DNA of 64,000 nt from positions 349,866,001-349,930,000 of the forward strand of contig OZ024741.1 in assembly GCA_964016885.1 (NCBI GenBank), given 5' to 3'. Each line of letters starts with the position of its first letter. Within the stretch, counting starts at the first letter, position 1. The notes under the pieces are model-generated. The model searched no databases and was not told the origin of the DNA. It saw only the letters and a list, made by a program, of their open reading frames with translations. Shown here one piece after another: positions 3,011-53,646 of the stretch. This DNA is from Eledone cirrhosa. Lineage: Eukaryota. The position numbers and the translations under genes were made by a program.

Positions 3011-3203
3011 AGCGTATGGGGTTAAGCGAACAAAGATATGCGGACCACATTATCGTCTGTCGGTCGTGAAGTAGATAAAAAGAAGCGCTCAACGACCTGT
3101 ATAAATGGTGCAGATCGGTGAGTTATATATTAATAAAAGATCGGAGACCATATACAGTTGACTCCTGAATCAACTGAATATGGCCTCCGATCTTTTATTA
3201 ATA
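3011..3203 (-). repeat. pLTR-like module 'C' with internal fold-back; inverted twin at 5867-6062
   Basis: Palindrome 3128-3203 with an ~8-nt spacer; near-identical reverse-complement copy at 5867-6062. Confidence 0.75.
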
Positions 3204-3297
3204 TATATATATATATATATATATACACACATATATATATATATATATATATATATATATATATATATATATATATATATATATATATATATATATA

Positions 3298-4532
3298 CAG
3301 GATTATTCCTACTAGTTAAACTCACCGATACGTTTCCTGCATTCGGCGGTGGATTGTACCGTGATGATGGGCTACTTACCCTTAAAGAGTACAACCCCAG
3401 TAGTACAGACCGGGTATGTAAACAATTAATCAGCTTCTTCCGCGACTGGGGATTTAAAATAACCCTACAAACGTCCCTGACCCGAGTAAACTTCCTGGAC
3501 GTTACCCTTGACCTCGATAATGATCTGTACTACCCATACAGAAAACCCAACGACAACCTGCACTACATCCACCGCTGGTCAAACCATCCTAGGAACATCA
3601 CCAATAACCTGGTTAAAAACATCTCCCTCCGCATATCTCGTTTGTCCGCTAATGAGCAGATATTCGAGGAACATGCGCCTTATTACAACCAGGCCCTCAA
3701 GCGGAGTGGTTTCCGGGAGGAAATATCCTACTGTCCAGCTTCCATTAGCGGAACCAGCAGGCGACACCGCGGCTCACGCAATGTAACATGGTTCAATCCT
3801 CCTCACAACGCCGAGGTGACAACTCCTATCGGGAAAATCTTCTTTAGGCTCATCGAAAAACACTTCCCACTACAACACCGCTACCACAACATAATCAACA
3901 AAAATACCATCAAACTCTACAGCACCACACCAAACTTTGCACAAAACATCGTCTCCTCTAACAACAAAAAACTCAACCCCTATGGAAGAAATAACCTAAA
4001 TAGCAGTGGAGAGCCGACCGGGAGAGGCAACTGTCCTGGTGGATCCATTTGCCCCCTCGACAACAGATGCAGACATCGTAATGTGATCTACCAGTGCAAC
4101 GTGAGGACAGACACATCCAACAAAGCTTATATAGGATTAACCGCATGTGACTTCAAGACCCGGCTATACTAACACAGACATACTTTCCGAAATCCGGCCC
4201 GGCGTCACGCCACCACACTTTCGGGCCACATCTGGGACCTCAAAGATAACAATATCACCTATGATCTCACTTGGAGCTTACTGTCCAGAGCCAACTCTTA
4301 CACGGGAGGACGCCGTCCGTGCAATTTATGCTCGGAGGAAACTTTACAAATGCTGTTTTCGACGGACCAACTCCTAAACAAGAAAGACGAACTGGTAACT
4401 GCATGCAAACACAGATTGCGTAGGACTTACCTCGCTCTCAAACCCCATAATGACCCGGGGGGGGGGGTAGACAAGGGCTGTAACACCCCACTTGCCGACT
4501 TTGTAATGGGTAACCCCTGCTTGCAAAGGTAG
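3298..4532 (+). pseudogene. Naiad-like PLE ORF, 5'-truncated (RT C-half + GIY-YIG), one in-frame TAA at 4170-4172
   Basis: GLYRDDGL, VNFLDVTLDL, YRKPN, WFNPP, VIYQC..YIGLT; same frame resumes after the stop with HIWDLK, CNLC and LLNKKDELVTACKH. Confidence 0.88.
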
Positions 4533-5602
4533 ACGTAAGATCTTCTTTCATATCTTTTTATCGTTTCCTCTATATTTCCTTCTTCCCCCCATCCCTTCCT
4601 AGTCCTTCCTCCCCAGTCCTCCTTCTTTGTCGTCGTCCTTTTCATTTTCTCGCCCACCCGAGGTAGCCCCTCGGTCCTTTGTAGCCTCAGTACCCCCACC
4701 CCCATCCCCTATTCTATGATAGAATTGGCCGACTCCGCTTTTTATAGCAGATGTGATAGACCCCAGATACTTGCTTTCTTATATGATGGCTGCCCCATTT
4801 CCGTGCTTTCTACATTTCTTAGTGGTATCTCTGCTTTAATTTCTCGTATATCAGTATTTTTTTTGGGGGGGGGGGGGGGGGTTCTGAATTAATTTTCCCT
4901 ATCAAATTTTTCATATACCTCGTACGAGCATTTATGTAGTTTGCACTAGAATTTTTGTATCGTAGCGGAACCCTTAGAGATAGTATTAGTATTCATTTTC
5001 GGGATTCTGAATTATTATTTCGTATTAGTTTATTTTTTGCACTGGGTGGTTGCTGGCCTTGTGCCTAGGGTGGAGGCAATTATTTCGTATTAGTTTCGGG
5101 ACTCTGAATTATTATTTCGTGGTAGTTTCTTTAGTATTTTGGCCCCCACTTGTTGACCTGTCACCGTAAGATATACTCGGTCGATTACTACTAACTCTTA
5201 AAATGGTCTCTTTACAATTCCGTCCCACCTAGTAAACTTTTCTATAGTTTAGCAGTACCAGTGAGAGACTTGATGACTGTCGTTAGGGAATAGTAACCAG
5301 AAATTGTTTTTTTATATTTTTAACATTCTTGGTATTCTTCTATATATTTACTCCATATTGATTTACTTATTGTTTCGACTTCCTCCCCCTCCCCCTCCCT
5401 AGTATACTTGCTTGACCTCCTGCCCTGCTGTAGTTGGCACTATCAACGCACGACTGGGTTTCCTCCACTCCCTCTCCCTCTTTCTTCTACTGGCAGGTTC
5501 AGCTACCCCTTCCTTCCACAAATTGCCATGATAGAATTATGTGTCTCAACAACAAACTTTTGACCAATCCTTGTGACAATCACTTTTACCATATATGGAA
5601 TT

Positions 5603-5699
5603 ACCCCCTGAGAAGCTCGGCTATTCATATACCAGGATGAAAAATTTTCATTTAGTCCAGAATTAGCCGTCGAAACGGCTTGAGCTCAGCCGTCGGGGT
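5603..5699 (+). ncRNA. HHR-like motif with extended stem II and variant core CTGAGAA, at the 3' end of the Naiad-like PLE (family 'D')
   Basis: ACCCC-CTGAGAA-[g..CGGCTA..TAGCCG.tc]-GAA-ACGGCT-tgagctc-AGCCGT-C^GGGGT. Confidence 0.6.
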
Positions 5700-6105
5700 C
5701 CTACTCGTTCCTATATATATATATATATATATATATATATATATATATATATATATATATATATATATGTGTGTGTGTGTGTGTATATATATATATATAT
5801 ACATATATATACACACACACACACACACACACACACATATATATATATATATATATATATATATATATTAATAAAAGATCGGAGGCCATATTCAGTTGAT
5901 TCAGGAGTCAACTGAATATGGTCTCCGATCTTTTATTAATATATAACGCACCGATCTGCACCATTTATACAGGTCGTTGAGCGCTTCTTTTTATCTACTT
6001 CACGACCGACAGACGATAATGTGGTCCACATATCTTTGTTCGCTTAACCCCATACGCTCTCTCTTTCTCTCTCTCTCTCTCTATATATATATATATATAT
6101 ATATA

Positions 6106-50937: not shown

Positions 50938-51582
50938 ATTATATAGAGTAGAGTTTAGTAGGAATGACTGGTCAGTTGTGGTTGTTAACACCCGGATCTA
51001 TCCTGATTGAATAGACTTATGATCAGATGTATTCGACCCATGAACGTCCTGCCTCTTTTAATTATTGTGCGTCTGGGACTACATTATTCAATATATACTT
51101 TCTAGTTTTAAGATGATATGGTATGATATAAGATAGATTTGGGTCTATTTCCAGCAAGTTTAGTGACCTTGTAAATTCTTCCTCTCTGGTTGGTTCATAC
51201 GTTGATGTAAACCAATGATGAAGGAATAAATGGCTCAGGTACTGGAGCTCACACTTGATGGCTTATATATTTTGAGGACGTTGATGCTCGTTATGATCAC
51301 AACCATAATCATAATCACCATCATGATAATTCTCATGATGAAACATATATTGCGCAGTTGCTGTTTTCATCACTCTATGCTGCCAATCTGTGTATGCCAC
51401 CAGAGTACTATACAGTACTATACAGCTGAACAAGCTGCTAAGTGTTTATTATCTTAGCTTAAGAATATTATGTTTCACTGTTAATGAAAAAGGCCTTTAT
51501 TTTCACATTCTTATAGATTGCTTTTGGAAATACAAGATGAACACATATTTCCTGATAGCTACAGGCAGTAGCTATCCGGACA

Positions 51583-51730
51583 TAGACTGGCCAAATAGTT
51601 AAGTCTTTTGCTTCGCAGTCTTGAAGTCCCGGGTTCAATCCTTCTGTATAGTATCTTAGGCAAGTGTCTTTTGCCATAAACTCGTGTCAACCCAAGCCTT
51701 GTATATAAAATTGATTAGATGGAAACTATA
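51583..51730 (+). mobile_element. Second tRNA-SINE family (CORE-like body)
   Basis: TGGCCAAATAGTTAAG, GGGTTCAATCC, CTTAGGCAAGTGTCTT. Confidence 0.65.
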
Positions 51731-52539
51731 AATCCTAAATCCAATTTGTAATTCATGTGATACTGATTCTTCTTGAAAATTATATTTCGAGGACACGTGT
51801 CTGTGAAGTACATAGCTATATACATGCTAATTCAATGAGCGAGTAGCTCAATCGATCACACAACTCAATATTCTCGTAGTCGAAACCAACGGTGACCCTT
51901 TGATTGGTAGTGTATCTCATACTTGAAAACCCAGCTGTTTTTCAGAATACCTTGACACCAACCCACCCCAGACCACCATGGATTTTAAGATACAAAACAA
52001 CTTGTTTTAAATTAAATGAAAACCTTTCGTCCAAATTTTATTATATTCCAATCTTCTTCTTCTTCTTCTTCTTCTTCTTCTTCTTCTTCTTCTTCTTCTT
52101 CGTTTCACTATATATATGTGTAGTGAAAAGATTAAAATGCTAGAGGTTTCTTTACAAATCACAGGTTATAGGGAAAAACAAAAATAGGGTTTTAAAAATG
52201 CAATGACTGATCTTCTGGTTATTTAGAAGGTTTCTGTATTGATGTGCGAAGTAATTTTATGATTATTTATATATTTTCATCTACTTTAACTTATTTCAGC
52301 TATTTTTACAAAAAAAATTTTTCGTTATAGTCTTGAAAAATTGTTTTCATTTATGTTTATCTCACGTGTTTGGTCGCTTATGTTCTTGCTGAGTATGAAG
52401 GACGCAACTGTTTATATCTTTGTCGTTTATGTTGAGGAGAATACAAGGAGCGTAATTCAAACTTGATTATATCTTTTTATATGTATTTTTTTTTATATGT
52501 GTAAACAATTATGTTTTGGTTTCAATTTACTAATCCGTT

Positions 52540-52990
52540 TCTCCTGAGTGAAATTATCACTACACTGCTAGAATAAGAAGACATCAAAATTTGGCAGAAT
52601 TTGTCCTCTACATTCCTCTATATGTTGGCATAGAGGGATATTTCTGCTTTGAGAGTCACTGATATGTTGTTGGTGGACTGTCATTCGTCTCCATAGTGAA
52701 ATGCCTGTTTGTCCAATATAATATTCACGACAGTCTTTACACGTTATGATGTATATTAGGTTCTCCGACATGCAAGAGAAGTCATTTTTAATTTTAAAGA
52801 TGGAACCGTCTTTGAAATTAAATTCGTTGCCTTCTAAAAGATAGTTGCATACTCTGCAGTAAGGTAGATTGCACCTTTTTACTTCAGGTCTTTAAAAATG
52901 GTTTATAGCTTTGCATTCGTTAGTAACCTTTTAGTGATTATGATTGTCGTTTACTTTTTATGATTGGGTGTTTTTTGTAAGATGTTTTTC
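52540..52990 (-). pseudogene. Neptune-like PLE GIY-YIG remnant, related to 28891-30221
   Basis: SENLIYIITCKDCREYYIGQT..RRMTVH..IPLCQHI. Confidence 0.85.
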
Positions 52991-53646
52991 ATATAAATGT
53001 TAATATAAATATACATATATATCTATGTGTGTGTTTGTGTGTGTGCGCGTGTGTATAATATATATATATATAAATATATATAGTAATAATAAATGTGAAT
53101 ACTAAAAGAAAAAAAGAAAAAAATATATATATATGTATGTATATATATGTATATATATGTATATATATGTCTAAATATATATGTGTGTGTGTGCGTGTGT
53201 GCGCGTGTGTGTGTGTGTGTGTAGTTTCAGAAGATCCCGTTAAGGGTGAAAGCCGCGATTCTTTGCTTAAACTTTAATCTGTTCTTATAATAAATATTTG
53301 CTCTACGGGTTTATGTATATTTATGTATATATAAATATATAATCCTTATCGAGCCCTCTTCGGATTTTAGTATTCACATTTATTATTACTATTATATATA
53401 TATATATATATATATATATATATATATATACTCATCTTTTTCCATTTATCTGAGGGTTCTAAACCCCATTATCAGGCTAAAATTCCTTTAGTCAAAAATA
53501 CGGTGAAAGCTATTCTATTTTCTAATTTCAAACCTGCTCACTGTTTCAAAACATACTTACTTGCCATATATATATATATATATATATATATATATATATA
53601 TATATATATATATATATATATATACATACATACATACATACATACA

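Follow-up and report, generated by a model that had tools for sequence, protein, structure and literature searches.

The window analysed here, a 64,000-nt stretch of the Eledone cirrhosa genome, carries numerous copies of a short hairpin motif together with insertions of Hydra-clade Penelope-like elements (PLEs) (Table 1). All ten strict ACTC/GAGTRC sites listed in an earlier note on this DNA were found at the positions it gave, and the variant at 3085-3123 and the family H form at 53300-53356 matched their description as well; the AAGTGC variant was located at 46506-46527 on the reverse strand and not at 46508-46530. Three further strict copies (11659-11684, 32864-32884 and 49587-49607) and two further variant copies (5946-5984 and 18358-18409) were absent from that list. 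Another match to the pattern, at 51372-51408 on the forward strand, was without a microsatellite end and is probably due to chance.

The motif is genuine. The window gave 15 matches, with 14 different right arms among them, where local dinucleotide shuffles gave 2.1; the corresponding figures for 400 kb of independent DNA from the same genome were 68 and 17. Permuted control patterns stayed near their own shuffle means, except for two related endings that were also raised, GAGTRG (41 against 19) and GAGTRT (45 against 29). The motif takes the form of a bulged hairpin, with an RCUC/GAGY stem, a 2-nt 3' bulge, a covarying inner pair and then RC. No hairpin site reached the gathering score among the best 150 of 204 hits of an Rfam scan, and nearly all of those 150 were miRNA models over microsatellites or fold-backs.

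Table 1. Hairpins and associated insertions in the window
Feature	Position	Strand	Remarks
Variant hairpin, 1-nt bulge	3085..3123	-	directly after short fold-back arm; no ORF linked
Family B Hydra element, 5'-truncated	3300..5711	+	RT-EN fragment (one in-frame stop), 3' UTR, putative hammerhead variant 5603-5699
Second copy of the 3085 element	5946..5984	+	
Two-armed family A insertion	7575..7808	.	short inverted arm and tailed arm; hammerhead-like 7672-7718(+), 7593-7639(-)
Hairpin 1, family A	7742..7762	+	family A Hydra ORF 52% identical to family B
Two-armed family C insertion	8119..8422	.	short and long end; hammerhead-like on short arm 8173-8229(-)
Hairpin 1, family C	8334..8355	+	
Hairpin 1, family B	11659..11684	-	inside two-armed insertion 11607-11765
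Hairpin 1, family E-like	12066..12087	+	
Hairpin 1, family D-like	12603..12631	+	inverted arm stops 4 nt ahead of hairpin
Hairpin 1, family G	13953..13979	-	inside two-armed insertion 13896-14360
Long-loop hairpin 1, three-hairpin family	18358..18409	-	read-through seen in L215
Hairpin 1, family B-like	22591..22616	+	
Hairpin, family without ORF linked here	25421..25447	+	
Hairpin 1, family A-like	32704..32725	+	
Hairpin 1, family A-like	32864..32884	-	
Hairpin 1, family B-like	36242..36267	+	
Hairpin 1, family D	46086..46111	+	inside two-armed insertion 45802-46178; hammerhead-like 45965-46028
Hairpin 1, family E	46506..46527	-	single mutation (AAGTGC); hammerhead-like core 46568-46604(-)
Hairpin 1, family A	49587..49607	-	inside two-armed insertion 49541-50047
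GCTC/GAGC hairpin, family H	53300..53356	+	Hydra EN 52% identical to family B

The families had previously been regarded as unrelated. Every family with a linkable ORF proved to be a Hydra-clade PLE, and most pairs of them are 33-57% identical at the protein level. The motif was therefore inherited and kept and is not convergent, and such deep divergence also rules out recent descent as the reason for its sharing. R[LIM]RW[RKT] was present in families B, A, C, G, L218 and L213 (RWK proper only in L213), and DKT in families B, A, C, D, G, L215, L218 and L213. The CxCX5C linker and CxxC plus CxH, with no CCHH, were found in the whole family B protein, which is 717 aa long counted from its ATG (L151:5987-8137), and in part in the H and L055 fragments. 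Insertions lie in (TA)n, with some ends in (TC)n or (CA)n. The family B sequence is the pLTR of an intact, recently amplified tandem Hydra element with many near-identical copies, whose hairpins stand 164 and 86 nt ahead of the ATG and whose unit measures 3,531 bp, against the "generally <3 kb" given for Hydra elements in the available text of PMC8557442. The truncated family B element of the window has its short end at 5711, just ahead of the expected start of hairpin 1. A general PLE signal was ruled out by the two other PLE families that were tested in this genome, a Neptune-type family (28891-30222) and a family at 40588-42629; both have tails of about 40 nt and no motif within -150 to +250 of their short ends.

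The proposed link in position to hammerhead ribozymes was borne out, as the motif occurred downstream of 18 of 135 hammerhead-like calls and within 100 nt upstream of none of the 135. It starts 26-62 nt past the predicted cut site, beyond stem I, and hence lies outside hammerhead stems I-III and the core. Among the other calls, 44 of the 135 end in (TA)n without the motif, and 73 represent other families, decayed copies or false calls. Judged from sequence, a hammerhead core appears to be present in families A, C, D, G and E, and a putative variant U3-A8 core was identified by eye in family B. The hammerhead relic suggested at 25323-25365 did not hold, since neither it nor other copies of the same family have a GAAA core there on the strand assigned to it. 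The position ahead of a microsatellite was confirmed in part: a microsatellite lay 30-69 nt downstream in 83 of 146 strict matches, compared with 281 of 3000 random points (1.01 Mb), and yet the hairpin marks a short end 5' of itself and not, as had been supposed, a 3' end 20-80 nt beyond.

What the earlier note saw was a real hairpin, the first of two. In read-through copies a second hairpin is found ahead of the ATG, and solo copies are without it. Past the long end it occurs in families B, C, D and G, in L215 (three hairpins) and in L216/L218; for family C it had been predicted in advance, and 202 genomic read-throughs then showed it, with 0 for a reversed-pattern control. The spacing from hairpin to hairpin is 78-102 nt here and 57-83 nt in loci from public metagenome contigs. 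Family A has no canonical second hairpin, only a degenerate GCAC/GTGC hairpin past the long end. The second hairpin was unseen in families E and H; a search for read-through copies of family E found none. Several double-hairpin matches proved on inspection to be nested insertions or to belong to a satellite on C26 and were set aside.

The insertion ends follow the two hairpins closely. Among families in which both hairpins were seen, 117 of 119 microsatellite-flanked ends fell within -14 to +2 of a hairpin start, and in a 200-kb block added later 29 of 31 ends, counted over all families, belonged to the short or long class; in family A, 8 of 34 ends belonged to neither. Tandem arrays likewise begin at one of the two end sites. 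Two-armed insertions combined one short with one long end in 46 of 46 cases (25 SL and 21 LS), where 23 would be expected if the ends were independent. The same pairing was found in the Neptune-type family without the motif (5/5), so pairing does not require the hairpin.

Base pairing in the inner stem was compared with shuffles. With the register set by the 2-nt bulge, 63 of 108 pairs were Watson-Crick against 35 in shuffles for the 27 hairpin clusters of this genome, a count that retains about 4 clusters that are misregistered or antisense reads, and 111 of 188 against 60 for the metagenome loci, where no other register within 0-4 rose above shuffles. On an RT tree built from the sequences of this analysis only, changes of the fifth pair between T-A and C-G number at least 5. 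Thermodynamic stability gave no support for the hairpin: the median z was -0.5 against loop shuffles, and on folding of the 5' UTR the hairpin appeared in the minimum-energy fold and not in the centroid. The sense strand, which also carries the hammerheads, gave the more stable fold in 19 of the 27 clusters.

These strand data bear on a reading for which the template boundary of telomerase provides the analogy. The hairpin might act on antisense RNA as a boundary that halts the RT, as part of the model of self-priming on antisense RNA that Arkhipova et al. (2013) put forward to account for head-to-head palindromes (PMC3846280); in its favour, the core stem is identical on either strand. We consider it very improbable, given the sense-strand hammerheads, the sense-favouring folds, tandem arrays whose start coincides with one of the two end sites and, in the available text of PMC11167929, an in vitro PLE reaction that works from sense RNA.

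The hairpin was also found outside this genome. It occurred upstream of 49 of 57 Hydra ORFs on public metagenome contigs, with two copies in 33 and no clear hairpin in 8, compared with 6 on the antisense strand, 1.5 in shuffles and 12 of 519 ORF windows; by clusters (<65% identity) it was present in 27 of 32. A loose pattern predicted a hammerhead in 47 of 58 metagenome 3' regions, and 10 of 18 (TA)n ends (9 loci) lay 1-12 nt ahead of a called hairpin; of the others, some coincide with degenerate hairpins or with internal runs of TA and some have no explanation. One RNA run with a 0.06 share, as contigs only, was uninformative. Published consensus sequences from coral and sea cucumber carry the hairpin; two of six consensus sequences were without a clear copy, and a third had only a variant. 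In the part of the Craig et al. supplement that was available, five 8-mers occurred at 26 places. Inspection of these by eye gave four full hairpins, each of them at the pLTR of a Hydra element. Two isolated look-alikes also turned up, both away from an end: one belonged to a Naiad 3' UTR and the other to a further non-Hydra consensus. No description of such a hairpin was found in a literature search.

The last hairpin ends 13-49 nt ahead of the ORF start in 23 of 27 metagenome clusters, and this proximity would fit hairpins that serve transcription, translation or RNP assembly, as a promoter or by loading ribosomes or protein near the ATG, with ends adjoining them only via the flanking UA-rich linkers. 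Internal promoters in pLTRs are indeed described (PMC3846280, and PMC8557442 in its available text). Many other TA-rich stretches of the UTR are nevertheless unused, while 117 of the 119 ends are at hairpins, and a variable loop length with covarying pairs seems unlike a DNA-binding site. We therefore hold this explanation to be quite improbable, and the promoter alternative of the earlier note gained no support.

Its other idea, an element for RT recognition or priming, fits the ends just 5' of the hairpin, the two hairpins for two ends and the conservation across hosts, though not as a signal of PLEs in general. What is observed is the hairpin, doubled and covarying, together with two positions for the ends and a strict combination of short with long ends, and on this basis we think it probable that the Hydra-clade hairpin, usually doubled between the hammerhead and the ATG, sets with each copy an RT start on sense RNA, a few bases 5' in the UA-rich linker.

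The main rival places the reading of the hairpin on DNA. The GIY-YIG endonuclease would recognise it in cDNA or as an extruded arm and cut the adjoining TA-rich linker, and the two ends would be the points where a tandem or circular DNA intermediate had been cleaved. In 32 of 46 metagenome loci the linkers share the TA-richness of the target, and wobble counts scarcely tell the strands apart (G-U 11 against A-C 6 in this genome, which is thin strand evidence, and 2 of 47 metagenome hairpins have A-C at their outer pair too). As far as the available texts go, Craig et al. attribute the tail to endonuclease-mediated resolution (PMC8557442), and Frangieh et al. cite a requirement of the D. virilis endonuclease for tail sequence in DNA (PMC11167929). 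On the other hand, the 3' ends of both arms face outward into (TA)n, as two primings predict, the ends of the Anolis element are RT starts (PMC11167929, available text), and so weak a hairpin would hardly extrude from double-stranded DNA. Taken together, we judge this rival rather unlikely.

Returning to priming on sense RNA, both ends could be accounted for as follows. The endonuclease would cut both strands within (TA)n, and each 3' end would anneal to a UA-rich linker over 2-6 nt; the primer set at hairpin 1 would give the short arm, and that set at hairpin 2 the long arm. Two protein copies would probably act on one uncleaved or circular RNA, the dimer being suggested by analogy, and the two truncated cDNAs would then be joined head to head; the tail would equal the distance between the hairpins, and hairpin 2 would be left uncopied in solo insertions. 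That two telomerase-related RTs on tandem hairpins of one such RNA simultaneously prime both ends of a (TA)n double-strand cut, with the twin hairpins as a ruler, is put forward tentatively, at somewhat less than even confidence. If true, a single step would account for the inverted arm of Penelope elements as well as for their one-sided tail and tandem arrays, and the hairpin pair would be a portable start signal with two sites. Of these features, the tail and inverted arm are hallmarks of PLEs, the closest retrotransposon relatives of telomerase, that still await an explanation, and a short, doubled, clade-wide signal at both ends reduces the tail question to a few RNA mutants. The hairpin also gives a rule for the unit boundaries of Hydra elements and for spotting non-coding elements that they mobilise.

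RNA stems recognised by the RT are known from other retroelements, such as the 3' stem-loops of LINEs and SINEs, the R2 3' UTR and hepadnaviral epsilon. The hairpin resembles these as a small structured RNA proposed to place the RT beside its start, and differs in being doubled, 3' of an internal start and left uncopied. In L1 twin priming, two primers yield an inverted 5' arm; unlike there, the inverted arm here repeats the same sequence from a fixed second site.

With the Hydra clade of Craig et al. (2021; PMC8557442, available text) the present elements share RW[KR], DKT, CxCX5C and CxxC/CxH without CCHH, as well as the pLTR hammerhead, (TA)n targets, inverted 5' arm and one-sided tail; the same text describes no hairpin and gives a tail of 30-40 bp, against the hairpin spacing of 78-102 nt here. 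Metazoan non-LTR retrozymes (PMC7229834; bioRxiv 10.64898/2026.07.22.740005), for which a circular RNA template and mobilisation by PLEs have been proposed, likewise have type I hammerheads and tandem units; they are non-coding, and the available portions of these sources name no cis-signal for the RT. In Anolis Poseidon PAc, the only PLE tested in vitro, the genomic ends are RT start sites with the tail between them (PMC11167929, available text for all that follows on PAc); as here, two neighbouring end sites lie downstream of the hammerhead. Both DNA strands are cut and extended at those sites, and a dimer is predicted. The PAc starts fall in an AC-rich stem-loop inside the ORF, without target homology and with no repeated or cross-family signal reported, whereas the ends here lie in TA-like linkers of the 5' UTR, each just 5' of its own hairpin copy and with 2-6 nt of TA microhomology.

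The window contains 15 matches to the motif ACTC-N12-30-GAGTRC, where local dinucleotide shuffles give 2.1; in 400 kb taken from elsewhere in the 3.0-Gb animal genome under study there were 68, with 17 expected from shuffles. Permuted patterns, used as a control, gave counts close to shuffle means, and two motif-related endings were raised about 1.5- to 2-fold over shuffles. All ten strict matches reported in the earlier note were recovered in place, as were two of its three variants, the third being shifted by 2-3 nt. The motif had been placed there 3′ of a hammerhead ribozyme and ahead of a microsatellite. 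Of 146 strict matches in 1.01 Mb, 83 had a microsatellite starting 30-69 nt 3′ of them; the same held for 281 of 3000 random points. Among 135 hammerhead-like calls (1.21 Mb), 18 carried the motif 26-62 nt past the predicted cut, and none carried it within 100 nt 5′. The majority of hammerheads therefore have no motif downstream; many of these are short arms or members of other families. Re-examination gave no confirmation of the hammerhead relic suggested at 25323-25365. Contig C26 (loci L223-L237, ~20.003-20.005 Mb) carries a satellite with a 26-nt unit, every unit having GAGTGCT then CC or GC; it could stem from the end of the hairpin, or the resemblance may be due to chance.

The fragment of open reading frame (ORF) listed below continues via a 1.2-kb 3′ UTR into the terminal repeat of family B, for which a genome search revealed a tandem array (3,531-bp unit, frames intact). 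Its protein carries RWR in place of RWK, together with DKT, CxCX5C, CxxC and CxH, and lacks CCHH; RWK, DKT, CxCX5C, CxxC, CxH and the absence of CCHH are the Hydra-clade features of Penelope-like elements (PLEs) listed in the available part of Craig et al. (PMC8557442). The families had been described as unrelated, which was not borne out, since A, C, D, E, G and H, along with three further families (in L213, L215 and L218), were each tied to a Hydra-type ORF, with pairwise protein identity of 33-57% between families with long overlaps. A fragment at L055, 90% identical to family C, was counted as family C, and no ORF link could be established for sites 3085, 5946 and 25421. We take the family B hammerhead core variant to be of the U3-A8 type. 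The fold-back copies flanking the family B insertion possibly form one larger event. The motif was not present in two other PLE families of the window, with tails of ~40 nt.

Features in the window and related loci
Feature	Window position	Strand	Remarks
ORF fragment, family B	3300-4470		
Family B hammerhead	5603-5699		Also L151:5710-5800; core UUGAGAA or CUGAGAA, not CUGANGA; stem II long
Short fold-back element	2988-3285 and 5784-6081		Two near-identical copies in opposite orientation
Neptune-type PLE, young	28891-30222	-	Also L001-L030, L155; frame of 784 aa; at least 95 copies sharing 98-100% identity
PLE family	40588-42629	+	Also L101-L120, L154; frame ~1,200 aa; asparagine-rich insert
Near-perfect 222-nt fold-back in (TA)n	7816-8037 and 53428-53530		Family unassigned
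Non-LTR-type RT frame, 927 aa	59103-61886	-	RVT_1 and zf-RVT; ordinary LINE part
643-aa frame	177-2108	-	Zinc-knuckle-like motif; ordinary LINE part

Inverted arms terminated about -5 to +1 relative to the motif start in most inspected copies; in family D, 15 of 19 reported partner arms ended at query base 142, five bases 5′ of the motif. Copies reading through the long end contained a second hairpin, usually GCTCC...GAGCRC, between that end and the ATG (families B, C, D, G and L216/L218). The one in family C was predicted beforehand and then seen at 202 places (control 0). L215 had three hairpins, family A only a degenerate GCAC/GTGC hairpin at the second position, and a search for read-through copies of family E found none. 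Where both hairpins were seen (families B, C, D, G, L215 and L216/L218), 117 of 119 microsatellite-flanked ends fell within -14 to +2 of a hairpin start (1.41 Mb). Over all families 197 of 210 ends fell in this range, the second site being set from the tail end in E and H and from the degenerate hairpin in A. The (TA)n flank began mostly 4-12 nt 5′ of the hairpin, within a UA-rich linker.

All 46 two-armed insertions with both ends classifiable had one short end (near the first hairpin) and one long end (near the second), short-long in 25 and long-short in 21, where 23 mixed would be expected if ends were independent. A motif-free Neptune-type family paired its ends likewise (5 of 5); pairing is therefore a PLE trait, and the hairpin is how Hydra elements mark both sites. 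The young Neptune-type PLE of the window has a long 3′ UTR containing a microsatellite, with two ends ~40 nt apart, and pattern search found no canonical hammerhead core in its 3′ region. In the plus-strand PLE family, the tail appears to lie inside the ORF start, like that of the Anolis element. Short tandem arrays in which the family A hairpin is joined to a piece of the tail (L238-L240, L242, L250) suggest repeated template jumps at the hairpin.

For the pairing test, sites were picked from sequence only (27 clusters, 3000 shuffles). Inner pairing was best when two bases before GAG were skipped, with 63 of 108 pairs Watson-Crick against 35 shuffled (0/3000 as high); a register with a 1-nt bulge gave a weak excess, only with G-U pairs included (29/3000). 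Such shuffle tests are inflated by kinship of the families, and changes were therefore counted on an RT tree (36 labelled leaves), where the fifth pair switched between T-A and C-G at least five times. The element consists of an RCUC/GAGY stem, a 3′-strand bulge (mostly UU, UC or UA), an inner stem whose first pair is U-A or C-G, a loop of variable length and RC left unpaired. Covariation was seen at the outer pair (A-T 17, G-C 7, G-T 3), and the stability of the hairpin was not exceptionally high. Wobble counts (G-U 11, A-C 6) were weakly in favour of the sense strand.

With a profile of 55 homologues, 77 Hydra loci were retrieved from public metagenome contigs. In 57 of them the sequence 5′ of the ORF was 100 nt or longer, and of these 57 the hairpin was present in 49 and doubled in 33 (controls: antisense 6, shuffled 1.5, ORF windows 12/519). 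In clusters below 65% protein identity it was found in 27 of 32, twice in 20, with spacing of 57-83 nt. The first inner pair was Watson-Crick in 42 of 47 (C-G 28, T-A 14), and 10 of 18 (TA)n ends in these contigs fell 1-12 nt 5′ of a called hairpin. Among published consensus sequences inspected by eye, one coral and one sea-cucumber element had the hairpin 3′ of the hammerhead, another sea-cucumber element had two copies at its 5′ start, and a copepod element had a variant; two elements had no clear copy. In the PMC8557442 supplement, one lone look-alike was seen ~520 nt from the end of a Naiad 3′ UTR and another in a further non-Hydra consensus; these are likely chance.

The Hydra clade, hammerhead, inverted arm and one-sided tail are already published (available parts of PMC8557442 and PMC3846280). 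In the openly accessible full-text papers searched, no description of the hairpin, its doubling or a link to ends was found. The portions covered of PMC11167929, PMC8557442, PMC4209133, PMC3846280, PMC7229834, PMC13282606 and bioRxiv 10.64898/2026.07.22.740005 describe no such hairpin, and a search of the PMC11167929 supplement gave no matches.

In the Anolis PLE (PMC11167929), cutting and extension by the protein take place on both DNA strands, and copying begins within the RNA at two sites equal to the genomic ends; the protein favours RNA that is unprocessed, and a dimer is predicted for it. By analogy, it seems reasonably probable that the Hydra hairpins position the RT, two starts giving both ends. 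Each hairpin would hold the RT where the linker directly 5′ of the hairpin can base-pair with a (TA)n primer; two hairpins would provide two starts, one per side of the cut, tail length would equal hairpin-to-hairpin spacing, and the last hairpin would be left uncopied in solo insertions. Since the ends extend beyond the ribozyme cut site, the template must have been either circular or left uncleaved at that point, and the multi-unit array is compatible with both. Of the alternatives, an endonuclease signal on DNA is the strongest but unlikely, a signal for expression or assembly is very unlikely, and a template boundary on antisense RNA is slightly less probable still. LINE stems, epsilon, twin priming and telomerase boundaries are the systems with which this arrangement was compared.
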